Shown in pieces: positions 4,169 through 36,937 of a stretch of 41,902 nucleotides of DNA (the stretch's first letter is position 1; every line of letters begins with the position of its first letter). Below the pieces are notes generated by a model that was given only the letters and a program-made list of their open reading frames with translations, did no database searches and was not told the DNA's origin. Origin of the DNA: a virus (Duplodnaviria > Heunggongvirae > Uroviricota > Caudoviricetes). The position numbers and the translations under genes were made by a program. The DNA is taken from IMG/VR virus record IMGVR_UViG_2778261315_000003. One strand, 5' to 3'.

Positions 4169-7144
4169 TTACATTGACATTAATATAAACATGGATAATT
4201 CATCATAGCGAATTCCGTATCGTCCTCCTGCTTTTTTTACAAGAATCATATTTCCTGTTTTATATTGAGAATAAATTTTCTCACCTGTATCAGGATCTGT
4301 GCTCTCTTCAGTTATCACCTCTTCATCCCATACGTCAGGCCATTCATCGTAACACCAAAAAGCATATTGCTCAGGATTTAAACCATGCTTTCTAAGAATA
4401 TCCCCTACGGTTTGAGCGCCAACGCCAAAATGATACCTGGACGACTCAATTCCTTTGTGATTAATTGAGTCATTAAATTTAAATTTATAGATGACTGACT
4501 TTATTTCAATAGCGGCATCACGCTCTGCATTAAGAATATCATATCTTGTTTTAAGAGTTTCATCTGATGTATTGATTGACCCGGTTCCTGCATAAATAAC
4601 AGAGCATCTGTTTGATGGCTGTCCAATAGCTTTAACATTATCATCAACAGGAGCTATTTTATTAGCATCTGCCAACCACCAGTCTGTTCCATCAGCGTGA
4701 CCGATTCTTACTCTTATCCCACTTCTAATATTTAAACTTCCAGTATTACTCTGTAAATTACAATCTCCTGACGTTGGTCCAAGCAGTACAGTTTTACCAA
4801 CACCACATACTACTCTGGCATTTCCTTTTTGTGATACGAGTCTTGACTCACCTCCTGACTGCTCAGGAAGAGATTTATGGTCTATAAATGCATCGCGGGG
4901 GTTAAATACACCGTCTCCAGAATTATATCTTCCTCCTGTATAGTTGTTAAATACAGGACCCCAGTCAACGCCATTGCCTTCAGAGCACCCGACCATTCTA
5001 AGCACTCGCGTATTCCCTGCTGCATATGGTAATGAGCTTGTTGATTGCCGGGAAGCTATCATACGTGCTCCATAACCAATAGCATTACCACCATTTATAG
5101 TTACATATGCTTGCTGGCTTTCGAAATATGTACTGTAAAAGTTCATATTTCCACAGTCATGCAGATGAATAAGAACATCATCCCATCCCTGAATGGTTCC
5201 CGCATGTACCTGTACACCGCGAACTGGTTCCCCTGAAACCTCCATACACTCTGATGGTCGGCTGAATGGCTGAGACAGGTATTGCGATGTGGCAAGCAGA
5301 TGTGTGTGGTGATACAGGCTGGTAATGTAGCAATCGAAAAATTGCGTTCCCGCCATACCAAAGTTATCTATGTCATTTCGCCGTATAGTAGAACCTACTG
5401 TTGCCTCAGAAGCGTTAGACACTCCAGTAAATACTAACTTATCACCGGATACGGATAATCCTGAATAAGTGAAATTCCTGCCTCCAGATCTTAAAACCCC
5501 GGACGTTTCGAAGGTGTGGCTTGCTGACCATGGGATTTCGATAGTGCTGGACGTTACCGCTGTAATTCGGAATACATCATGGGCGCGGATCGAAACACCC
5601 TTGAATCCCTGGAATCTACAGTGATAATAGTTTTCATCCTCGCCCTGAGCGGCCAGCGTGCCAGATACAGGAATGTTCGTTTTTAAAAGTGCCGTCTTGC
5701 GCCAGTATCCAACCACCTGCAAATTGCGGTATTCATTGCCAAAAGACGCACGTGACCAAATACCTACATCCCACTCATCGCCAAGACCGGTATTTGCAAT
5801 GTCTTTATAACCATCCAGCCCATTGAAATATGGAACAATACGAAAGTTCTCAAGGCGAACACATCCTGTCTCTGGCATCAATATTGCGGCAGAGAATGGT
5901 TTAAGCGTGGCTCTTGTAGCCCCATTAGCATCACCGTTAGTAAAATCCAATAAATCATATGATGACGCAGGTGCCGTTGTTGTATACGGGTCTTCGGAAG
6001 ATGGATTAGAAACCACACCACCACTAACATCCATATTAGAAACACAATCTACAGTATATTTTTTATTTCCTACACCGTACATCAGGAATGTGGTCCCTGT
6101 GGTAATATCAGGAGCAAATGTTGCAGTATATCCAGAGACCCATTTGCCCACACCAAGACCAATTATCCCACCACCAGAAACAGGTGTTAACGTATCCGTT
6201 ATTACATACGCATTATCAGTACCATAAATAACCTTTCCTGTGTTAATGGCAGCTTGCCACGCGGCCCAGTCTATTGACTGAGATAATGAGTCAACAAAAG
6301 GATATAAGGATTTTGCTTCAGAAATTGAAGAAAACCTCTCAGATAATGGATGATATTTCCCATCCCCAATTGCTCCGAATTGTTTTACATTTAAGAAAAG
6401 AGCATTGTTTTCATGCTGAGTTATAGTTACAGCCCCGGCAAATGGCTGCCTTACACCAATTAATGCATCACCTTTTCCTTCTCCTGCGCTAGATAATTGC
6501 AGAAGAACATCTGCGGCACTGCCAGAAGGCACAGGTACACCTATAGGTTTACCATTGACGATACCAATGACAGTTTCTTCCAGTAAATGAACTGGAGGAA
6601 GTGGTTCAATAAAATTATCTGGAACCCGTAATGTCCTGTTAATATTCACATTAACAATATTATCAACATAATTCTTTGTAGCTGCATCTTGAGGCTTGGA
6701 AGGATCGCGCAAATTGCGGATGTAATTATTCAAAGCATCGTAATAGTTTGCCACAAATGATGGCTTGCGCAGCGCCAGGCTAAACCAACTGCGGACTTGC
6801 TGTATCAGCATCGTCAGCTTATCTAACGCGTCTTCATGCACCTCAGCGAAAAACTTTCCCTGATTTCGCAGATCAGTTTCCTGCGTAACTGGTAGCTCTC
6901 GTGATATAGAAATCTGATAACCGTTAGCTAACGCCTTCGACAGAATTACATTACCGCCATTATATCCACCAGCCCCTGTGACAGTGTAATCAGTATCAAG
7001 AGCCAGCACAGCGATATTTTCGTCAAGGTCAACCACCTGTACTGCCAGATCAGATTCCTTGAAAACCCTAAAGGTATACGGAAATGATGTCGTAACGCCG
7101 TTACCTGTGTATTCGTTGTGGTCAACTTCGGTTGAGACCGTCAT
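4169..7144 (-). CDS. tailspike / tail fiber with conserved N-terminal anchor and C-terminal intramolecular chaperone-like domain
   Basis: 991 aa; N-terminus YTGNGVTTSFPYTFRVF typical of podovirus fibre/spike anchors; Gly/Ser/Thr/Asn-rich central beta-rich region; C-terminal tail (...SDETLKTRYDILNAERD...HFGVGAQ...YDELSMF) resembles peptidase-S74-type chaperone domain. Confidence 0.8.
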   Translation of the reverse strand: MTVSTEVDHNEYTGNGVTTSFPYTFRVFKESDLAVQVVDLDENIAVLALDTDYTVTGAGGYNGGNVILSKALANGYQISISRELPVTQETDLRNQGKFFAEVHEDALDKLTMLIQQVRSWFSLALRKPSFVANYYDALNNYIRNLRDPSKPQDAATKNYVDNIVNVNINRTLRVPDNFIEPLPPVHLLEETVIGIVNGKPIGVPVPSGSAADVLLQLSSAGEGKGDALIGVRQPFAGAVTITQHENNALFLNVKQFGAIGDGKYHPLSERFSSISEAKSLYPFVDSLSQSIDWAAWQAAINTGKVIYGTDNAYVITDTLTPVSGGGIIGLGVGKWVSGYTATFAPDITTGTTFLMYGVGNKKYTVDCVSNMDVSGGVVSNPSSEDPYTTTAPASSYDLLDFTNGDANGATRATLKPFSAAILMPETGCVRLENFRIVPYFNGLDGYKDIANTGLGDEWDVGIWSRASFGNEYRNLQVVGYWRKTALLKTNIPVSGTLAAQGEDENYYHCRFQGFKGVSIRAHDVFRITAVTSSTIEIPWSASHTFETSGVLRSGGRNFTYSGLSVSGDKLVFTGVSNASEATVGSTIRRNDIDNFGMAGTQFFDCYITSLYHHTHLLATSQYLSQPFSRPSECMEVSGEPVRGVQVHAGTIQGWDDVLIHLHDCGNMNFYSTYFESQQAYVTINGGNAIGYGARMIASRQSTSSLPYAAGNTRVLRMVGCSEGNGVDWGPVFNNYTGGRYNSGDGVFNPRDAFIDHKSLPEQSGGESRLVSQKGNARVVCGVGKTVLLGPTSGDCNLQSNTGSLNIRSGIRVRIGHADGTDWWLADANKIAPVDDNVKAIGQPSNRCSVIYAGTGSINTSDETLKTRYDILNAERDAAIEIKSVIYKFKFNDSINHKGIESSRYHFGVGAQTVGDILRKHGLNPEQYAFWCYDEWPDVWDEEVITEESTDPDTGEKIYSQYKTGNMILVKKAGGRYGIRYDELSMFILMSM

Positions 7145-23948: not shown

Positions 23949-24650
23949 TTATTTGCCATAGAGCACTTCGGCCGCACTACGCTGGCCTTCATTACCACCG
24001 GTGACCATGCCATCTTCAGACATCGCCTTTCCGATTTTCACGAACGTTTTGACCAGATCAGGGTGATTACCCAGCCCGGTGGTGTTCAGATATTCTTTGA
24101 GTTCAGGTGTCCCGAACTGGTCAAGCGCACGCTGTGCGGCGCTAAGGTTAGAAATCAACTTGTCGCCACCGATTTCTTTGTCAGCTTTTACATCCGCAGC
24201 CCACTGCTCGGTTGTTTTCTGCCAGGCTTCTGCCTGGCGCTGCTGAACACCTGCCAGAATCTTCGGATAAGCATCAACCAGCTTTTGCGCTTGCTCGTTG
24301 GTCAGGTTTAGTTCTCGCGCCACCGGCTCGAATTCCTTCAACGCTTCTGTATCCAGCTCTACGCCTTCGGCAGCCTGAAACTCGTACTTCTCAGGCGCAC
24401 CCTCTGGTTTATCGCCGTCCTTTTTTTCATCCTGCTTATCGTTTTCAGGCTTTTTGTCATCAGCAGGTTTATCGCCATCAGCAACAGGTTGTGGCTTATC
24501 ACCTTCCGGTTGTGATGGATCACCAACTGGAGCAGGGTTATCACCTGCAGGCGCTGACGGTTCTGACGCAGCCGGAGCTGCTCCACCATCGACTGGTTGC
24601 TCATTGCAAAGACGGCGATACAGCAAACGCTCAAATAAATTCATGATCAC
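23949..24650 (-). CDS. scaffolding protein
   Basis: 233 aa; acidic Pro/Asp/Lys-rich low-complexity N-terminal half, helical C-terminal half; between portal and capsid. Confidence 0.6.
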   Translation of the reverse strand: MIMNLFERLLYRRLCNEQPVDGGAAPAASEPSAPAGDNPAPVGDPSQPEGDKPQPVADGDKPADDKKPENDKQDEKKDGDKPEGAPEKYEFQAAEGVELDTEALKEFEPVARELNLTNEQAQKLVDAYPKILAGVQQRQAEAWQKTTEQWAADVKADKEIGGDKLISNLSAAQRALDQFGTPELKEYLNTTGLGNHPDLVKTFVKIGKAMSEDGMVTGGNEGQRSAAEVLYGK

Positions 24651-24943
24651 TCCTGTTCACTGGCCTCTTTGGCCATCTTCAAATACTGTTCAGGGCAATG
24701 CGCCATAACGCGCTGAAACAGTTCCAGCGCCAGATTGCGTTGCCCCTCATTAAATGCCATTGCCATAGCGTCCATCGGTGAGATAGCGGAAAACACACGG
24801 CCTTTCTCCAGCACCGACCAGACAACGCGACGCCCCTGTTCACTGCTCATGACAAAGCGAATGTCATCAATTTCACGCTGTGCCATGTCACGTTGCTTAC
24901 GGGCGTTTTCTTCTTTCAGTTGATCATCTTCGTAATCTGTCAT
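24647..24943 (-). CDS. hypothetical small head-module protein
   Basis: 98 aa acidic ORF coupled between portal and scaffold. Confidence 0.45.
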   Translation of the reverse strand: MTDYEDDQLKEENARKQRDMAQREIDDIRFVMSSEQGRRVVWSVLEKGRVFSAISPMDAMAMAFNEGQRNLALELFQRVMAHCPEQYLKMAKEASEQE

Positions 24944-26619
24944 TGTGATTGCCCACCCTGACCACTAACTGCATTCGCCATAGCTGACAAAACACTCGGA
25001 TCCGAAGTTTTAGCTTCGCTTAGCGTCTTGGCGCCCTGTGCCGCCGCCATTCCCATCGCCATCATTTGTTGCTGCTGTTGCTGCTGTGCCCGTTGCTGGC
25101 GAGCCTGCTCAACCTGTTCCTGCGGAACAATGACGGTTGGAGACACTCCGGACATATCAGCGAATGCATCGATCGCCTGATCAACATTGAGTTTGTCGAG
25201 AGCTTCTGGTTTCGCTTGCGCAAGTTGACCAATGAAGTTAACCGTGGACGCCAGACTGGACAGGCCGATAGACTTCTGCGCCTGAGCCATGACGGAAATG
25301 TATTCGACCTTCAGGGGCATGCCTTCCATCGCGTCAGGCGGTGGCGGCAGCATGTTTTTACGCACCATCATCGAGAAAGCGCGGTCAATGAGAGGATTAA
25401 GACATTCGTCGTTCAGACGCTCCAGAACCGGCCCCAACATCAGAAGCTTTTCTTCTTTCATTTCGATCACTGCTTCAACAGGCATCGAGCGGGTATTGAT
25501 GTTCTGCAACATCATGAACAGATCGACAAAGTAGGCGCTGTTAATGATTTGGCGAGTGTCCTGAATGTCTGCTACCAGATCTGCTGTACTGGGGTTAACC
25601 AGATAAGCAGGCCTGAAACCATCCTGACCAGTAATCTGATCGATATACGTGATGTCGCCAGGAAGAAGGGAGGCGCGCTGATTCTTGAGGGAAGTCGGAG
25701 CAACCATCGGCGGATTGGTGGCTTTATCAATCAACTGCGACTTGCGCTTCTGGAGAAGCTGCAATGCCTTAACAGGTCCAAGCGCCAGCATACCCGGGCA
25801 TGATGATCCATAAACATCTTCGCCGTTAACTTCCCAGCGCGGAGCCATAATTGGAAACTCATCGAATCCGGACTCACGCAACAACTTGTCGTTATCGCCA
25901 CCAACCTCGTAATAAACCGATTTGAATGGCTTGTTCTTGCTATCCAGCTTCGATGTATCGCGGTCAATGTTCGGGTAAACCGAATGCATCACTTCAATCC
26001 ACTTCTCGTAGGTGCCGCTTTCCCACATGCTTTTTACGGATTCGCTGACGTTATTTAGCCCGAACTCCTGAACAAGCTGACGAACAGTCATAGAGAACTT
26101 GCGAAAACAGGTGTCCACACTGCCACGAGGTGAGTTAGCCAGGTAGTAACTGCCTATCGGGAATGGCATTGTGCGAATGATGTCATCGTCATCCTCCAGT
26201 ACCGCCATTGCACCAGTGCTGTATGTGCCGAGGCTTCCGTATAACTGCGGCAGCGACTGATAGAGATTCGACTTATTGAACATATCGTTCATGCGGTTCT
26301 GCACCGCCTCAAGCCACAACTTAACAGGGCCATAATCCATCATTTCAGGATCTGGCGTAGCCAGGCGAAACCACGGACGCGCGGGGCTTGTGATGCCTGA
26401 CATCATGCCGCTGGCGAGAGTTCGCGCCGCCATAGTCCCGGTCGAATCAATAATGCGTGTATTGCGTCGATCGTTACGGTTGACCTCAGAAGTCAGAAAG
26501 CGGGAACCACGCGGGTTGATGTAATCACTCAACTCGCGCCAGTGCGGCTCGAACGACTGACGCTCGCTTTCAAGTTGTGCGAACTGTTTGTTCAATCGCT
26601 CTTTAGTTGTTTCCGCCAT
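24940..26619 (-). CDS. portal (head-to-tail connector) protein, T7 gp8-like
   Basis: 559 aa; C-terminal QQRAQQQQQQQMMAMGMAAAQ tail resembles the T7 gp8 C-terminus (QQKMAQQSMQMGMDNG) by recall. Confidence 0.85.
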   Translation of the reverse strand: MAETTKERLNKQFAQLESERQSFEPHWRELSDYINPRGSRFLTSEVNRNDRRNTRIIDSTGTMAARTLASGMMSGITSPARPWFRLATPDPEMMDYGPVKLWLEAVQNRMNDMFNKSNLYQSLPQLYGSLGTYSTGAMAVLEDDDDIIRTMPFPIGSYYLANSPRGSVDTCFRKFSMTVRQLVQEFGLNNVSESVKSMWESGTYEKWIEVMHSVYPNIDRDTSKLDSKNKPFKSVYYEVGGDNDKLLRESGFDEFPIMAPRWEVNGEDVYGSSCPGMLALGPVKALQLLQKRKSQLIDKATNPPMVAPTSLKNQRASLLPGDITYIDQITGQDGFRPAYLVNPSTADLVADIQDTRQIINSAYFVDLFMMLQNINTRSMPVEAVIEMKEEKLLMLGPVLERLNDECLNPLIDRAFSMMVRKNMLPPPPDAMEGMPLKVEYISVMAQAQKSIGLSSLASTVNFIGQLAQAKPEALDKLNVDQAIDAFADMSGVSPTVIVPQEQVEQARQQRAQQQQQQQMMAMGMAAAQGAKTLSEAKTSDPSVLSAMANAVSGQGGQSQ

Positions 26620-26633
26620 TTCAATGACTCCGG

Positions 26634-26840
26634 TTACTGACCAAGCAGCGTTTTACCGCTGGTATTAGCGGTTGATGTGTCGCCCTGAGAACCGGTAAGC
26701 AGCGTAGAACTACGACCAGCAGCAGCGCGACGGCGACGTGTTTCTTCGTCGCGGGCATCAACAACGGCGGCATCCTGCTCCTGTGGTGCTGCCTGAACTT
26801 CTGGTGTTGCAGGCACTGATGGTGAGCTACCCATGCACAT
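26634..26840 (-). CDS. small hypothetical protein preceding portal
   Basis: 68 aa; good E. coli-like codon usage; preferred over overlapping frame 26621..26860. Confidence 0.4.
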   Translation of the reverse strand: MCMGSSPSVPATPEVQAAPQEQDAAVVDARDEETRRRRAAAGRSSTLLTGSQGDTSTANTSGKTLLGQ

Positions 26841-26930
26841 ATCAATGACTCCGTACGCAATTAAATTATTACCAATTTAACCACATATGATTTATTTATC
26901 GTAGACAGTTGACATTTAACGCGCCAATTA

Positions 26931-26945
26931 TTACCTTTCAGGTAA
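26931..26945. promoter_or_regulatory. palindromic operator-like site TTACCTTTCAGGTAA
   Basis: Perfect TTACC-N5-GGTAA upstream of the head operon; identical to site at 7249. Confidence 0.6.
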
Positions 26946-27267
26946 CCAAAGAGTTCATTCCGGTTACTAACCTGACTGGCTTGTCGTTAAATTGAACAGG
27001 TGGAGTGAGCTTTTATTTTGAGCAGTACGGCGTATGGCACATGCGCCGATAGCGGTCTGGATACGTTTAAGGGGCACCCTCCCTTGCTCGGGCAAACGAA
27101 CCAGGTAGCCGGAATGTGCAAGTCGAGCGGTTTTATTCCGCGCACGGGGATTCACCATCCCGGCGATTCGGTGTGACGCCTCGGAAGAGACGAGGGTACA
27201 ACGATGAGAGCATTTATGGAGCCGCGACAAAGTGTGGTGCCTTAACAGGCTAAGTGCTCTCAGCGTT

Positions 27268-27344
27268 GTGGCATTAGCTCAGTTGGACAGAGCAACCGCC
27301 TTCTAAGCGGTTGGTCGCAGGTTCGAATCCTGCATGCCACGCCA
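27268..27344 (+). tRNA. tRNA-Arg (anticodon UCU)
   Basis: Cloverleaf folded by hand: acceptor GTGGCAT/ATGCCAC, D-arm GCTC..GAGC, anticodon stem ACCGC/GCGGT with loop CTTCTAA, T-arm GCAGG-TTCGAAT-CCTGC, discriminator G, encoded CCA. Confidence 0.9.
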
Positions 27345-27387
27345 GAATCACGCCTAAGGACCGTGATGCCAGAAGTTCCAGGTGCTT

Positions 27388-27430
27388 GGCGGTGATGGTT
27401 TCCCTTGAAGGACTATCACCGCCCTTTTTA
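27388..27430 (+). terminator. stem-loop with U-run downstream of tRNA
   Basis: GGCGGTGAT-N18-ATCACCGCC followed by CTTTTT. Confidence 0.4.
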
Positions 27431-27507
27431 CAGCAGGACGCCATTGCGATGACTTCATGCTGTAAACCCGTACAGCCACGGAAGGCATAACTCATTGCTT
27501 CCAGTTC

Positions 27508-27531
27508 GCCCGGTTCGCCGGGCATTTTTTT
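27508..27531 (+). terminator. rho-independent terminator (UUCG tetraloop)
   Basis: GCCCGG-TTCG-CCGGGC followed by ATTTTTTT; only 12 bp upstream of the next ORF. Confidence 0.6.
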
Positions 27532-27542
27532 AAGATGAGATC

Positions 27543-27962
27543 ATGAAGACAATTGATATGTTGGCTAAGTATCTAAATGAATGGCCATTAAAATATTCTC
27601 GTATCGTTCAGGCTGAAGACTGCATTTTTTATGGCGTTTTTGCTGGTAATGAAATGCATTACGAAGTAATTCAGAGTGAGGGACTGGCCGGGTTAACTCT
27701 TAGCGAAGACCATGGTACTAGCGTTACGTTCCATGACTGGATAACAGCACAACGTTCTGAAATGGAAAAAGGCGATGTGTTTGATATTTCTCGCTCTGTT
27801 TGCGCTAAAGCAAAAAGTGATAATGATTACATGAGCGAACACTTATACAACATGAAGTTACAATGCCTGCATGCGGCGCTTATTCAGAATAGGCAATTCG
27901 ATAAAACAAGTGCCATCAATATTGCGGAAGCCATCAACGCTGGATTTGATGCCATTAAGTAA
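27543..27962 (+). CDS. moron protein of unknown function (139 aa, cytoplasmic)
   Basis: Plus-strand ORF between portal and terminase, opposite to all neighbours; no signal peptide; followed by terminator. Confidence 0.55.
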   Translation: MKTIDMLAKYLNEWPLKYSRIVQAEDCIFYGVFAGNEMHYEVIQSEGLAGLTLSEDHGTSVTFHDWITAQRSEMEKGDVFDISRSVCAKAKSDNDYMSEHLYNMKLQCLHAALIQNRQFDKTSAINIAEAINAGFDAIK

Positions 27963-27975
27963 CGCCGTGACATGT

Positions 27976-28010
27976 CACAAACAGCCAGCCGATGAGCTGG
28001 CTTTGTTTTA
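27976..28010. terminator. terminator hairpin between convergent moron and terminase genes
   Basis: AGCCAGC-CGATGA-GCTGGCT followed by TTGTTTT. Confidence 0.5.
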
Positions 28011-28052
28011 TCCTCATCAGAGGATATCAACGACATTATCCCCTCAAGCGGA

Positions 28053-29528
28053 TTAAGCATAGGGATCGTAATCTGTGATGGCCTTGCCTTGCTGGTTCTG
28101 CTGCCCGGGAATTCGCAGACGCTTAGACACAGGGAACGCAAACGTCATCAGTAGCGCATCGCCTTTACCCGGAGAACGCCCAAGCCGCTCCTTGATATCT
28201 TCCTTCGGTTCGATAACGATTTTACCGTCCACTCGAACTTTGTACTCTGCCGCCGACAGGTCGTCCGCTGTTTCCTGGTCATCCAGCATGCCGCCCAGCC
28301 TCAGCCATGTCTTGCATGAGTTGAACATCTCCCCACGCTTGTTGAGCATCTGCGGGTCAGTAGACGCGCCACCGAACGGAACAAGTTGCCATGTGCGCCC
28401 CCAACCGTCACCGATTGACTTCAGCCCGGTACCGTAACCGAAGTCGATGAACACCGCGTCAGCCTGATACTGGTCTTCAAAGTCAGCGATGCGCTTCGCC
28501 ATAATCAGATCGTCGGTGGTCTTGTTGCCAGTCCACAGCACCTTACTGTGCAGCCCCTGCCGCAGGTATATCACCGCGTCATCAACACCGGAGTATGCAG
28601 GGTCAACGCCGATTATCACCGGAGCATGTGCCACCTGCGCAGCAGTTACCACCCGTTTCATTGCCTCGTCAGTAAGACCGGTAGGGATAAACTGCAATTC
28701 AGATGCATCAGGGAATATGCCACGCACACGGATTTTAACGAAGTCGCTGTCTTCCCCGTAGTCATCAACCCATTTCTGCAACTGCTGTTTGTTAGTGCCT
28801 TCCACCGTCCGGCTGTCAATCTGCGCAGTTTTCCAGCGGTGTTTGTATTTGCGAAAACATTCGCGAAAACGTCCGGTATTACGCGTCGGGTTTCCGAACG
28901 CCACCCAGATAATCTCAGTGTCTTCGTCCGTAAGCGCACCCTCAGCAACTTCCCACACCAGATCCGCAATGTTCGACGCTTCATCGAATACCACGATGAT
29001 GCGTTTGCGCTCGTTGTGTAGTCCGGCGAATGCCTCAGTGTTGTGCTCAGACCAGGGGATTGCGTCAGCTCGCCACCGCTTGTCGTGCCCAGGATCATTG
29101 CTGTACATCGCGGTAGCGGTACAGGTAAACCAGTCTTTCGTGATAGCAAGGTTAGACCACTTGATAATTTCCGGCCAGGTCTTCGTTCGTAGCTGGTTGT
29201 CGGTGTTAGCGGTCACCACAACCTTACAATCCTCGCAAGTGGACATGCCCCAGTTGATCAGCATTGAGATGAATGCGGATTTACCAATACCGTGACCTGA
29301 AGCGCGTGCCAGCATAAGCGGCTGATAGCGCGTCTCTGGATTCTGCAGGTGATCACGTATCTCTCGGAACGCATCAGCCTGCCACTGACGTGGGCCGGTA
29401 GCATGTGCCAGTTCAGTCCCTTCTTCCCCCCACGGGAACGCATAGAGGGCATAGCCAAGCGGATCGTGAGTGAACCCTGCAATATCCTCGATCAACTGCT
29501 CTTCAGGAGATAACGCTGTATCTGTCAC
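28053..29528 (-). CDS. terminase large subunit
   Basis: 491 aa; Walker-A-like SGHGIGKS, ATPase and nuclease halves; preceded by small-subunit gene. Confidence 0.85.
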   Translation of the reverse strand: MTDTALSPEEQLIEDIAGFTHDPLGYALYAFPWGEEGTELAHATGPRQWQADAFREIRDHLQNPETRYQPLMLARASGHGIGKSAFISMLINWGMSTCEDCKVVVTANTDNQLRTKTWPEIIKWSNLAITKDWFTCTATAMYSNDPGHDKRWRADAIPWSEHNTEAFAGLHNERKRIIVVFDEASNIADLVWEVAEGALTDEDTEIIWVAFGNPTRNTGRFRECFRKYKHRWKTAQIDSRTVEGTNKQQLQKWVDDYGEDSDFVKIRVRGIFPDASELQFIPTGLTDEAMKRVVTAAQVAHAPVIIGVDPAYSGVDDAVIYLRQGLHSKVLWTGNKTTDDLIMAKRIADFEDQYQADAVFIDFGYGTGLKSIGDGWGRTWQLVPFGGASTDPQMLNKRGEMFNSCKTWLRLGGMLDDQETADDLSAAEYKVRVDGKIVIEPKEDIKERLGRSPGKGDALLMTFAFPVSKRLRIPGQQNQQGKAITDYDPYA

Positions 29529-30121
29529 TGATTACCATCCTGACGTTCTTTGAGTCGCTTCCTGGCTGCTGCTATGCGATCAGCAATTGTCACATTCACA
29601 TTAACATCCAGACGTTCTTTGAACGCGTTGACATCAACATGCTTACCAATCAGCTCAAGGTTCTTCACCTTGTCAGGCCATTTAATTTTTTTGAGGATTG
29701 TCTCTATCGAATCCTCGTTCATGTTCATGATGGTCGACGACAGATCAAAGCCACTAAGCGTAGTGCGCCAGATTTTCGGCCACTCACGGATTGGTTTAAG
29801 GCTCCCATCGTCGTTGAGGATGTCGATCACGTCCATCTGGTCGATCTCCACCAGGCGCATGAGAACGTAATCAGCACTGACGCGCATTCGTTTGTTGCGC
29901 TCCTCCATCAACTCGGCAATCCGTTTTTGAATGCGTTCATCGCGCATCATGACACTGGCTTTAACTGCCGCTGTATTTGGGGAGAATCCTGCGTTAATCG
30001 CTGCCTGAGTCTGGTTTTCAGGCGTTTTGATGTATGACTGACAATAAGCCTCCTGCATTGCTGTTAGTGGCTTAAATTGCGTTGATTTGCGTTTATAGGT
30101 TTTAGGTTCAGCAGGCATCAT
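29525..30121 (-). CDS. terminase small subunit
   Basis: Motif AYCQSYIKTPENQTQAAINAGFSPNTAAVKAS typical of small terminase HTH family; start placed at internal Met (ORF extends to 30199). Confidence 0.65.
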   Translation of the reverse strand: MMPAEPKTYKRKSTQFKPLTAMQEAYCQSYIKTPENQTQAAINAGFSPNTAAVKASVMMRDERIQKRIAELMEERNKRMRVSADYVLMRLVEIDQMDVIDILNDDGSLKPIREWPKIWRTTLSGFDLSSTIMNMNEDSIETILKKIKWPDKVKNLELIGKHVDVNAFKERLDVNVNVTIADRIAAARKRLKERQDGNQ

Positions 30122-30195
30122 AACCACCGTGGTAATTGTTACCGTTGTGGTAATAATACCATGCAAAATAAAGCCGCCATAGTTGGCGGCAGTAT

Positions 30196-30429
30196 TCAAA
30201 ATCCATCAAATTCATCGTAAAAACTCTCGTCAAGATACCCTTCCCATTTACCGCGAATGAAAATTACATCCTCGCCGCAAGGGTGCTGACTGTCGATAAC
30301 TATATCCCTCCTGGCGCAACCATACTTATGCATGAGAAATTTAACCTCTTTCGGAAAATTTGCTGAGTTATCTCTCATATCTTCAAGGTCGTAGCGTATT
30401 TTTGGCATAACACCTTCGTGACATGTCAC
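30196..30429 (-). CDS. hypothetical protein
   Basis: 77 aa ORF, coupled in early/nin-like operon. Confidence 0.4.
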   Translation of the reverse strand: MTCHEGVMPKIRYDLEDMRDNSANFPKEVKFLMHKYGCARRDIVIDSQHPCGEDVIFIRGKWEGYLDESFYDEFDGF

Positions 30430-30767
30430 ACTATTAATTTCGTTTCATGCCAGCCTTTAGTCACCCAGCATTGCGAGTCACCATTACACGGGCATGAATT
30501 CACAGGAACTCTCTCGCCGCACTTACCGCAACGTTTTCTGCTGATCGATTTTATACGCCCGCGCACGCGTGCATCATCCTGGCGGATCAGTAACGCTATA
30601 TACTCACCAAATTCGTAAGGCGCACGCCCGGGGCGACGCGTGGCACAGTTACGCTCCAGCATTTCAATTTCCTGAGCATCAAGCACAATCTCCAGCTTAC
30701 GTACACCGGATTCAGCTTGTCTGGCTCTCTGAGCGGCTTTGCGCTCTGCTGCTGATTTAGCCATCAA
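30426..30767 (-). CDS. hypothetical protein with Cys-rich C-terminus
   Basis: 113 aa; basic coiled N-terminus, C-terminal CGKCG...CPCNGDSQC. Confidence 0.45.
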   Translation of the reverse strand: MMAKSAAERKAAQRARQAESGVRKLEIVLDAQEIEMLERNCATRRPGRAPYEFGEYIALLIRQDDARVRGRIKSISRKRCGKCGERVPVNSCPCNGDSQCWVTKGWHETKLIV

Positions 30768-30791
30768 TATTCACCTTTATTGCGAACATAC

Positions 30792-31013
30792 TTAGCTGTG
30801 TGTTGCCGATGTGCGGAGATTCTCTTCTATCAATTCCACGCATTCTGACCGACGAACAAATAATTCGTCTCCGTTATGAATTACGACATAGCCGTAAGCG
30901 GTTTTACGCATCACATCGAACTCATCCCATACGGAAATACCGCACTCTGCTAACGAGCAATCCAAATAATCTTCCGGATGCTTGTCGGTGTTATTAATGA
31001 TGCGAATCCTCAA
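30792..31013 (-). CDS. hypothetical protein
   Basis: 73 aa ORF. Confidence 0.4.
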   Translation of the reverse strand: MRIRIINNTDKHPEDYLDCSLAECGISVWDEFDVMRKTAYGYVVIHNGDELFVRRSECVELIEENLRTSATHS

Positions 31014-31043
31014 ATCTTTTCACCTTTAAGGATAAGTTGCATG

Positions 31044-31826
31044 TTAGCCACGGTTAACCTCCTTCGGCGGTTCTGGTAGCAGCATCCAGAACAAGGCGTT
31101 CCCTAACCACGATAAAGTGCCGTCGCTCAACTCCACGTATTCCCCTTGCACCTGTCCTGCCATATACTCACCGTGCTTTGAATAAATTAAAATCCAATCA
31201 TCTTGAGCGGGCATTCGCTCACTACAGCTTATCCAACCATCCGGAGTTACCGGATAGTTGCGCATTGCGACCTTTAATGCCTCATAGAAGCAACCTTTCA
31301 GATTGTTGAACTGACGCCCATTTAGCGGGACGTGTTCAGTCAGCATGTTGTGTAATTTCCATGCCGCGTCGTTTACTTCGCTGGATGACAGGGGAGGCAA
31401 CTTGTAAGTTTGGCTTACAGGTTCGGCACCATGAAGCATGGCGGCTCGGCAGGCGTTTTCTGCGATAGATGCGCATTCTTCAACGACATCGCGCACCGAT
31501 TCTGGAAATTCATCTATGCACGCGCGGATTGCTGTAGCGGCATCTGGCACAGATACCTGCGCTGGCTGGGCAGTGTAAACGATACCTTCAACCCAATGCG
31601 CACCATCTTCATTGCAATGGCACTTCGACTCTAGCGGCTCATCCAAACCTTCAGCACCACACCCGCTACAGGTGAAGAGTTTGCGACTTTTGGCTTCCAG
31701 CGATGCCAGTGCAATTCGTGCCAGTTCTTCCGCTTCTTCTGCTGGCAGTACAACGTTGCTACCAGGTCCGTATGTTTCGCGCCACTGCTTGATTGTCAGC
31801 AGTCGCTCTTTGGTAATAGTGGTCAT
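31044..31826 (-). CDS. DUF551-like prophage protein
   Basis: 260 aa; C-terminal GWISCSERMPAQDDWILIY matches the DUF551 signature as recalled. Confidence 0.5.
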   Translation of the reverse strand: MTTITKERLLTIKQWRETYGPGSNVVLPAEEAEELARIALASLEAKSRKLFTCSGCGAEGLDEPLESKCHCNEDGAHWVEGIVYTAQPAQVSVPDAATAIRACIDEFPESVRDVVEECASIAENACRAAMLHGAEPVSQTYKLPPLSSSEVNDAAWKLHNMLTEHVPLNGRQFNNLKGCFYEALKVAMRNYPVTPDGWISCSERMPAQDDWILIYSKHGEYMAGQVQGEYVELSDGTLSWLGNALFWMLLPEPPKEVNRG

Positions 31827-31836
31827 TTGTTATGCC

Positions 31837-32034
31837 TCAATACACGAAATCTGTTTTAAATTCATGGTTACATTCTGGACAGCATGTTTCGTAACCTTTT
31901 ATTTCTTCACATGCCTGTTTAGCTCCAGAAAACTCCCAGAAATCTGGATCACAAAGCAGATCGAAATTGTGACCACATTTGGGACATTCGGTATCAAGTG
32001 ACAGACTCCAGTAGGCAGTGGTGTTTTTATCCAT
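31837..32034 (-). CDS. small zinc-ribbon protein
   Basis: 65 aa with CPKCGH ... CCPEC pairs. Confidence 0.45.
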   Translation of the reverse strand: MDKNTTAYWSLSLDTECPKCGHNFDLLCDPDFWEFSGAKQACEEIKGYETCCPECNHEFKTDFVY

Positions 32035-36218: not shown

Positions 36219-36803
36219 ATGAAAAGTATCCAGGACGTCCGCAGGCAAAATCTCAACGACTTGATCGACCGTGAATTCAATGGTGTTCAGACGCGGATGG
36301 CAGAAAAACTTGGAACTCAGGCAAATCTGGTAAACCGCTGGGCTCTTGGCAAGAAGGTTATCGGCGACCAGGTTGCGCGAAAAATTGAAGCTGCCGCCAA
36401 TAAACCCCGTAACTGGCTTGATATCGATCGCTCGCTTTCTCAGGAAGGTTTTCAGCCTGTCGGCCCAAGCGACATTGGTCAGCTGGCGGCTCACAACCTG
36501 GAACGCTGGATGAGCGAAAGCCGCGACCTTTCAACTCAGGGAAAACTTCACCGCGCATCCGGCGTCGCCCAGGTGACAATCAGCCGCCTGTTAAACAATG
36601 AGGTCAGTGTTTCCATTTCCACCCTGGAGAATGTTGCATCAGCATTCGGGCGTCACGGCTATGAATTACTGATTCACCCGCACGACCCTGCGACCATCAA
36701 CTATGACCGCTCGCGCTACGCATTGTTACCCGAAACCGAGAAAGCAAAGATCGAAAGTTATATTGAATTTGTCATCAACCAGAACGAAAAAAACAAACAA
36801 TAA
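36219..36803 (+). CDS. tandem-HTH (XRE-family) repressor, CI position, no peptidase domain
   Basis: 194 aa; two HTH-like segments (VQTRMAEKLGTQANLVNRWALGK and LHRASGVAQVTISRLLNNE); no S24/LexA-like C-terminal domain visible. Confidence 0.65.
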   Translation: MKSIQDVRRQNLNDLIDREFNGVQTRMAEKLGTQANLVNRWALGKKVIGDQVARKIEAAANKPRNWLDIDRSLSQEGFQPVGPSDIGQLAAHNLERWMSESRDLSTQGKLHRASGVAQVTISRLLNNEVSVSISTLENVASAFGRHGYELLIHPHDPATINYDRSRYALLPETEKAKIESYIEFVINQNEKNKQ

Positions 36804-36875: not shown

Positions 36876-36922
36876 TTTTTTTAACTCATATCTATTGACA
36901 TCAAACCAAATACGCATAATTA

Positions 36923-36937
36923 TTACCTCAACGGTAA
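36923..36937. promoter_or_regulatory. palindromic operator-like site TTACCTCAACGGTAA
   Basis: Perfect TTACC-N5-GGTAA just downstream of the candidate -10 region and 20 bp before an RBS/ATG. Confidence 0.6.

Follow-up and report, generated by a model that had tools for sequence, protein, structure and literature searches.

In the classical sense of Hendrix and Juhala, a moron is an extra gene of lambdoid phages that has its own promoter and terminator and is expressed from the prophage. Another arrangement is known from the put elements of phage HK022, where an early promoter is followed by a structured RNA and then by terminators that have to be passed (PMC9378689). The gene described here, an open reading frame (ORF) of 139 amino acids termed ORF139, shares traits with the first of these, and its control region with the second. 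It is located in a stretch of viral DNA of 41,902 nucleotides (nt), hereafter called the window (IMG/VR record IMGVR_UViG_2778261315_000003), which represents an epsilon15/phiV10-like temperate podovirus of the genus Uetakevirus. An earlier note, made from the DNA letters only, had described ORF139 as a tRNA-linked moron without assignable features that starts 12 base pairs (bp) after a strong terminator with a weak ribosome-binding site, lies convergent with the terminase gene, interrupts the terminase–portal packaging unit, and may depend on read-through from a tRNA promoter. Comparison with its relatives presents ORF139 as a genuine gene that is exchanged as cargo at a fixed start junction, behind a conserved control region with a structured leader RNA.

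ORF139 is under purifying selection and is more than a chance reading frame. With the hidden Markov model (HMM) of family phrog_4846, residues 1–139 align to profile positions 1–139 of 140 (E = 3.4e-88, 293.7 bits), and pairwise ratios of nonsynonymous to synonymous substitution rates (dN/dS) against four homologues range from 0.17 to 0.42. The homologues form 103 clusters at 90% identity and belong to Enterobacteriaceae throughout, with E. coli, Salmonella, Citrobacter, Klebsiella, Leclercia, and Cronobacter as hosts. An identical protein is encoded on 66 contigs, and 99%-identical variants on more than 100 contigs each. The family is nevertheless narrow, since an exhaustive HMM search among 1.84 billion representatives matched only 34 proteins.

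The protein is soluble, acidic, and composed of two domains (15.8 kDa, isoelectric point 5.1, net charge −7); reading the sequence by eye revealed neither a hydrophobic segment nor a signal peptide. Its AlphaFold model reaches a predicted local distance difference test (pLDDT) score of 82.4 with a deeper alignment, compared with 67.6 in the first model. It consists of an N-terminal α-β domain (residues 1–75, pLDDT ~90), a disordered acidic linker (~76–92), and a C-terminal helical hairpin (~93–137). Remote homology searches and structure prediction bear out that no feature can be assigned beyond a family of unknown function. Searches of Pfam (nothing at E ≤ 0.1 for ORF139), NCBIfam, PADLOC, and PDB, the latter by sequence and by profile, gave no match for ORF139 or its family; among the PADLOC-DB defence HMMs, no family was matched at E ≤ 1 by ORF139 or by three of its slot relatives, and the Tad2-like profile PF11195 was matched neither by ORF139 nor by any of 30 family members (30/30 unmatched). 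Fold comparison yielded no PDB match and none with a scaffold or internal-protein fold, and the BFVD fold search returned uncharacterised phage proteins only. A weak profile match to large GloVer-type repeat proteins via the motif RIVQGxDxxFYG was judged to be a short β-hairpin resemblance without functional meaning.

The + strand block of 1.2 kb that holds tRNA-Arg and ORF139 is flanked by terL and gp3. It does interrupt the terminase–portal unit, but as a genus-wide conserved architecture of Uetakeviruses and not as an insertion peculiar to this prophage. ORF139 homologues in prophages of Leclercia, Klebsiella, Citrobacter, and E. coli always lie between gp3/portal and terL. Across the loci fetched, at least 10 unrelated N termini are preceded by one conserved junction, which is composed of the T2 terminator hairpin, A and seven T, AAGGTGA, and 4 to 9 nt before the ATG. 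The cargo of this slot includes the ORF139 family, with or without a C-terminal extension; gp53-like proteins that have only the C-terminal hairpin in common with it; the Gp49 family (PF13876) of phiV10 and epsilon15, which is the commonest alternative; an 86-amino-acid (aa) protein (phrog_11049); a 143-aa protein (phrog_18493); a membrane/coiled-coil protein of 282–292 aa (phrog_4780); and two Tad2-like, i.e. anti-Thoeris, proteins (PF11195, E = 2e-24 and 4e-26, above the Pfam cut-off). One of the Tad2-like alleles is carried by a phage in which gp3 and portal match those of the window at 100% identity and terL at 99%. In some relatives, the slot beside the conserved terL, gp3, and portal genes holds a mere 28-aa or 8-aa ORF. 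From these alignments, ORF139 is read as exchangeable cargo with a recombination boundary essentially at the start codon.

The cargo proteins are themselves mosaics. Recombining modules comprise the ORF139 N-domain, a gp53-like domain, the helical hairpin, and a fourth, C-terminal module with the motif WLxxNxHPHxSVI, which occur in several orders (Table 1). The cargo of Enterobacter phage Tyrion has its C-terminal 50 residues in common with ORF139 at 86% identity and is unlike it in the rest. This C-module, 74–86% identical among proteins with different N-domains, could be understood as an anchor that brings variable N-domains to the procapsid or the packaging machinery, ORF139 being a virion-delivered protein or an assembly accessory. 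Genes with the module all lie inside head-gene clusters, either at terL/portal or, for one module combination in a podovirus contig (L145), flanked by a scaffold-like gene and the major capsid gene and encoded on the strand of the structural genes. We regard this explanation as improbable. ORF139 is encoded opposite to the late genes, behind a promoter of early type that appears to be operator-controlled; it is replaced in the slot by alleles without the C-module (Gp49, Tad2-like); and neither inspection of the phage's own scaffold nor the fold comparison revealed any likeness. The idea of a scaffold-like hairpin, which stems from gene position only, is of low confidence. Nor is ORF139 present genus-wide together with terminase and portal: the slot takes at least 10 unrelated ORFs. 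Since near-identical phages carry unrelated genes there, ORF139 is not a packaging accessory protein.

Upstream of the slot lies a conserved structured RNA of ~190–240 nt in total (27026–27262, +), which the earlier note had missed. This leader RNA, situated between the predicted promoter and the tRNA, contains a hairpin CGGCGTAT/ATGCGCCG, a long-range stem enclosing a variable insert, a hairpin GGGA[TTCACCA]TCCC, a further hairpin CCTCG[GAAGAGA]CGAGG, and a closing stem. The loop of the GGGA hairpin (27157–27171) forms a pseudoknot by pairing its CACC (27163–27166) with a downstream GGTG (27180–27183); in mEp460, both partners have changed to AACC:GGTT. The closing stem likewise covaries in a Stenotrophomonas phage, where it reads GAGCGCAC/GTGCGCTC. 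In an alignment of 12 sequences, 97.7% of the cells are paired compared with 28–43% in slid controls, with eight compensatory pairs and none of 500 shuffles reaching this value. The same 97.7% (slid controls 26–41%; 12 of 28 pairs compensatory; 0/500 shuffles) was obtained for 66 distinct viral sequences, taken from 81 matches of the covariance model R1 in 80 contigs, out of more than 120 that a motif scan had picked up in IMG/VR, although this larger alignment was fitted to R1, which flatters its pairing statistics. Because G–U pairs are strand-specific, the RNA is read on the + strand. No leader match was found in Rfam 15 within 26600–28100 at E ≤ 1, where only the tRNA and a weak, below-threshold − strand match over the tRNA appeared; a literature search with strings of the leader sequence gave nothing relevant.

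The leader RNA is widespread. Unannotated DNA matching the 245 nt 5′ of the tRNA is present in more than 600 E. coli records and in 92 phage records. It is found in the lambdoid phages mEp460 and mEp390, in Stx2a and Stx2c phages (including Stx2a WGPS2), in cdtI and 733R5, and in a Stenotrophomonas siphovirus; in the lambdoid and Stenotrophomonas phages, it opens the leftward early operon, being encoded co-directionally with the cI-type repressor gene and directly 3′ of it, and in the lambdoid ones it forms part of the PL leader, just past a PL-like promoter. In P1, P7, and D6, it lies between tRNA-Ile and ban, and in Klebsiella phage SopranoGao, it lies 3′ of the lysis genes. Epsilon15 has kept only a remnant with the first hairpin (locus L010, 3546–3611; R1 37 bits), and the adjoining stretch is annotated as an RNase III processing site in its record.

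Terminators follow the leader as a rule. A folding-based scan detected a strong terminator within 600 nt 3′ of the leader in 63 of 71 viral loci as opposed to 15 of 71 in shuffled sequence, and in almost all cases it is the counterpart of T1, a homologous GGCGGT...ACCGCC hairpin whose stem covaries and which is followed by a U-run. A promoter-like site within 200 nt upstream on the same strand occurs at 31 of 73 distinct leader loci (opposite strand 4; shuffled 19), which lends weak support to an early-promoter placing of the leader. In mEp460, no promoter was found between T1 and the early-left genes. These arrangements raise the hypothesis, by analogy, that the leader RNA acts as an antiterminator letting RNA polymerase pass T1 and T2.

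The tRNA-Arg gene in between is an optional part of the transcript. The tRNA link holds for the window; it is not obligatory. Leader and terminators are kept and the tRNA is absent at ORF139 homologue loci in Leclercia and Citrobacter and in Enterobacter phage Tyrion, which has the C-terminal module only. Overall, 16 of 71 viral loci have a tRNA-Arg(tct) gene after the leader, 53–115 nt past its core. In tRNA-less relatives, a 9-bp helix GTTGTGGTG/CACCACAAC takes the position of the acceptor stem and encloses a variable insert, so that the tRNA appears to have been exchanged into the leader transcript as a domain. An obligatory linkage of ORF139 to the tRNA is ruled out by these relatives and by the 16/71 count.

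Between the tRNA and ORF139, two terminators are arranged in tandem, of which T1 is the longer one and T2 covaries in its stem (GCCCAC...GTGGGC in relatives). The spacer between them shows conserved blocks in alignments across five genera and could represent a second RNA module or a small RNA ending at T2. It also carries a conserved GCTGTAAACCC; the motif GCTGT is further found upstream of T1-type terminators at other loci. The U-run of T2 ends at 27531, and the ATG of ORF139 follows 12 bp past it, as had been stated in the earlier note. The ribosome-binding site was also rightly called weak: with the 16S tail, the Shine–Dalgarno (SD) sequence AAGATGA of the window pairs at −2.7 kcal/mol, compared with −4.0 to −4.6 kcal/mol for AAGGTGA, the family consensus found in most relatives. 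It is a G-to-A variant of this consensus.

Taken together, the mutated SD (pairing lowered from ~−4.6 to −2.7 kcal/mol) and the canonical strong terminators T1 and T2 would fit a recently acquired, decaying or silent passenger that is effectively unexpressed in this prophage. This is an explanation to which we assign little weight. The frame is intact, the protein recurs on the many contigs given above in identical or 99%-identical form, and purifying selection acts on the entire ORF139 family. In addition, U-rich tracts directly 5′ of an SD are known translation enhancers, and the one in the window may act likewise.

On the other side of the gene, T3 separates ORF139 from terL, with which it is indeed convergent; in phiV10, the equivalent of T3 carries an annotation as a rho-independent terminator. 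As read from the sequence, neither T1 nor T2 is followed by a U-run on the − strand, and T3 has only the poor tail GTTTGTG there. Late transcripts from terL are therefore probably able to continue through the block to gp3/portal.

The only visible route to ORF139 expression is read-through from upstream. A consensus scan of 26600–28100 reported a single promoter-like site, TAGACA-18-AATTAT at 26902–26931 on the + strand, ~600 bp upstream of the ATG; the same scan showed none between T1 and the ATG. It overlaps a site recognised by eye (TTGACA, 17-nt spacer, TACCTT) that appears to be the better candidate; its TTGACA and ATTACC are invariant in seven Uetakevirus relatives from five genera. With the ATG directly 3′ of T2 in every relative and no promoter visible after T1/T2, transcription of the cargo would occur by read-through only. 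The earlier expectation of dependence on the upstream tRNA promoter is thus upheld.

The candidate promoter is overlapped at its −10/+1 region by a predicted immunity operator. The palindrome TTACC-N5-GGTAA occurs 11 times exactly and 15 times with at most one mismatch in the window, where 0.70 occurrences are expected and 0 of 100 shuffles reach this number. Copies are located between a divergent small gene and the helix-turn-helix (HTH) repressor gene, 3′ of the HTH gene, and upstream of terS. At 36892–36937, downstream of the repressor gene, TTGACA is followed by the operator in the same layout as at 26909, and the epsilon15 record AY150271.2 annotates the equivalent site as 'repressor, lysogeny'. 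The distribution of the motif suggests a genome-wide repressor regulon reminiscent of that of P1 C1. Owing to the operator on the predicted promoter, the unit looks like an early or lytic transcript. As part of the immunity regulon, the + strand tRNA/ORF139 unit would be repressed in the lysogen and switched on early once the phage infects or is induced.

This layout bears directly on the designation as a moron, i.e. on the view that ORF139 is expressed in the repressed prophage and benefits the lysogen by superinfection exclusion or fitness, either because transcription of the tRNA unit leaks into the gene or because a promoter has escaped recognition. The variable and terminator-flanked character of a moron is found: the cargo is present or replaced among near-identical phages (flanking genes 99–100% identical), and T3 serves as its own terminator. 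The phrog_4780 allele, moreover, is of the membrane/coiled-coil type often used for exclusion, and tRNA genes of phages can be active in the lysogen. An own promoter is lacking, however, as the scan shows nothing promoter-like from T1/T2 to the ATG and two strong terminators precede the gene; the operator lies across the −10/+1 region of the sole upstream promoter, in the layout of the repressor-adjacent early promoter; and the slot alleles include anti-defence proteins, which serve the infecting phage. The moron designation is thus kept in its variability and lost in its promoter, and as an account of ORF139 we consider it unlikely, albeit less so than a packaged protein or a silent passenger.

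The unit would accordingly be ordered as operator-overlapped promoter, leader RNA, optional tRNA-Arg, T1, T2, fixed SD, cargo ORF, and T3. In the lysogen, repressor bound at −10/+1 would keep it silent; upon infection or induction, it would be transcribed early. ORF139 mRNA would then arise only from polymerases that pass both T1 and T2, possibly with help from the leader RNA, which would act on the polymerase. Herein ORF139 would be an early, dispensable cargo expressed by read-through and most likely modulating the host or its defence, a reading to which we give an even chance. The proposed role is drawn from the Tad2-like genes in the same slot and from the cargo being small, cytoplasmic, highly variable, and module-shuffled.

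Several points weigh against this reading. The anti-defence role would be guilt by association with two slot alleles; the Gp49 family, which most often takes the place of ORF139, is uncharacterised too; and an exclusion function is equally conceivable for the 282–292-aa membrane/coiled-coil allele. Repressor binding, promoter activity, read-through, and translation are predictions from sequence throughout, and with the weaker SD of the window, this allele of ORF139 may be poorly expressed. The leader RNA has no detectable similarity to the antiterminator RNAs of HK022 and HK639. As the main alternative, it could be a stand-alone noncoding RNA ending at T1, with T1 and T2 then merely limiting cargo expression. 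A bolder version of the read-through proposal, in which the leader founds a new class of cis-acting processive antiterminators gating lambdoid early-left operons, P1 ban, and the Uetakevirus slot, and in which ORF139 is an anti-defence protein delivered by it, appears doubtful and is put forward tentatively.

Table 1 Features of the ORF139 locus, immunity operators, and selected slot alleles. Positions refer to the window unless another locus is named.
Feature	Position	Strand	Remarks
Portal gene	24940..26619	−	Head-tail_con, E 2e-187
gp3-like small gene	26634..26840	−	Between ORF139 block and portal
Sigma-70-type promoter (predicted)	26909..26937	+	−35 TTGACA 26909–26914, 17-nt spacer, −10 TACCTT 26932–26937; by eye
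Immunity operator palindrome (predicted)	26931..26945	.	TTACCTTTCAGGTAA; overlaps promoter −10/+1
Leader RNA core	27026..27215	+	5′ domain, pseudoknotted; ~190 nt; covariance model R1 172 bits
Leader variable hairpin and closing stem	27216..27267	+	GAGAGCAT...GTGCTCTC, up to tRNA; alignments
tRNA-Arg, anticodon TCT	27268–27344	+	ARAGORN; Rfam tRNA 73.3 bits
T1	27388..27429	+	GGCGGTGATGG...CTATCACCGCC then CTTTTT; stem 27388–27423, 14 pairs; −22 kcal/mol; scan
T1–T2 spacer	27430..27507	+	Invariant CGCCATTGCGATGAC loop; blocks conserved across five genera (alignment)
T2	27508..27531	+	GCCCGG-TTCG-CCGGGC, stem 27508–27523, 6 G–C pairs, then A and seven T
SD region	27532..27542	+	AAGATGAGATC; 11 bases between T2 U-run and ATG
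ORF139	27543..27962	+	ATG start, 139 aa, phrog_4846, two domains
T3	27983..28012	+	Stem 27983–28002, T-rich tail; scan, + strand only; separates ORF139 from terL
terL	28053..29528	−	Convergent with ORF139
terS	29525..30199	−	Mechanically longest ORF, TTG start, 224 aa
HTH repressor gene	36219–36803		HTH_3, E 1e-9; operator copies on both flanks
Exact operator copies	7249, 8369, 8462, 9522, 26931, 30139, 33806, 33868, 36149, 36861, 36923		Motif scan
Operator copies with one mismatch	3624, 30121, 35764, 36101		Motif scan
Tad2-like locus, sister Uetakevirus L104	6079–6375 of L104	+	PF11195
Tad2-like locus, sister Uetakevirus L087	ATG at 4201 of reverse complement	−	PF11195
Module recombinants	L003 3726–4097		Proteins P0068, P0099, P0103, P0108, P0133; several orders

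The surroundings of the locus are those of its close relatives. The 1.5 kb around ORF139 are 96% identical to Escherichia phage HEMP4 and 92% to vB_EcoP_PAS61, and phiV10 is 98% identical over ~72% of them. Two of the operator copies (30121 and 30139) fall inside the first codons of the longest terS ORF, and terS of epsilon15 is annotated shorter than this ORF; the true terS start probably lies farther downstream, with the operators within the terS promoter region. In phiV10, an 83-aa ORF named PhiV10p04 (window 27274–27525 on the − strand; phiV10 locus L001, 3175–3426) runs antisense to tRNA-Arg and T1/T2 and is almost certainly a spurious gene call. The publication on the Uetakevirus ZX5 (PMC9782041) contains no data on the ORF139 locus.

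By itself, ORF139 is just another hypothetical accessory gene, and its value lies in its location: a slot with a fixed regulatory front, interchangeable ORFs, and two established anti-defence domains among its cargo. The slot thereby provides a list of candidate counter-defence or host-modulating proteins, namely ORF139/phrog_4846, Gp49, phrog_4780, phrog_18493, and phrog_11049, from common prophages of E. coli, Salmonella, and Klebsiella. The leader RNA, absent from Rfam, occurs on more than 120 viral contigs and in lambdoid, P1-like, and Uetakevirus phages. If it does control terminator read-through, this would explain early-operon expression in many temperate phages without N.

Compared with described protein families, ORF139 is a member of phrog_4846, whose closest phage copies sit at the same locus in Escherichia phages HEMP4 (87% identity) and vB_EcoP_PAS61 (69%); as the family has no annotated function, membership explains no mechanism. 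With the Gp49 family (PF13876, N4 gp49/Sf6 gp66), it shares the slot, the junction, and a similar size in phiV10 and epsilon15, but no sequence relationship (a forced alignment gives 28% identity), and Pfam yields no match for ORF139. Tad2-like genes (PF11195) occupy the same slot with the same terminator/SD junction in sister phages, and ORF139 is likewise small, cytoplasmic, and acidic. Unlike for these alleles, there is no sequence or fold similarity of ORF139 to Tad2 or to PADLOC, Pfam, or PDB entries, and the link is positional only.

With lambdoid morons, ORF139 has in common that it is replaced or absent in close relatives, flanked by terminators, and placed between essential genes. It differs from them in lacking its own promoter and in being the last gene of an operator-controlled unit that is probably silent in the lysogen; furthermore, it is cargo swapped at a fixed junction as opposed to a self-contained inserted cassette.

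The control region is most similar in its layout to putL/putR of HK022 and the putL-like RNA of HK639. In these systems as well, the RNA lies 3′ of a repressor-controlled early promoter and is followed by terminators, and no obvious N gene is present; this put-like placement is found in the window, mEp460, mEp390, Stx2a WGPS2, 733R5, and the Stenotrophomonas phage. The put RNAs measure ~70–126 nt compared with ~190 nt for the leader RNA; they act in cis, rendering RNA polymerase resistant to terminators via its β′ zinc-binding domain. The leader showed no blastn similarity to HK022 24000–32000 or to the annotated HK639 putL-like RNA, and R1 had no match there at E ≤ 10. Motif checks were likewise negative, and homology to put RNAs was rejected; the common strings GGAAGAG and AACGAT stand in different structural registers. 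ORF139 itself belongs to an already known kind, the variable accessory genes of phages, and is a fairly ordinary gene. The unusual part is its control region, which combines a widespread, uncatalogued structured RNA with conserved terminators and a fixed start for swappable cargo.

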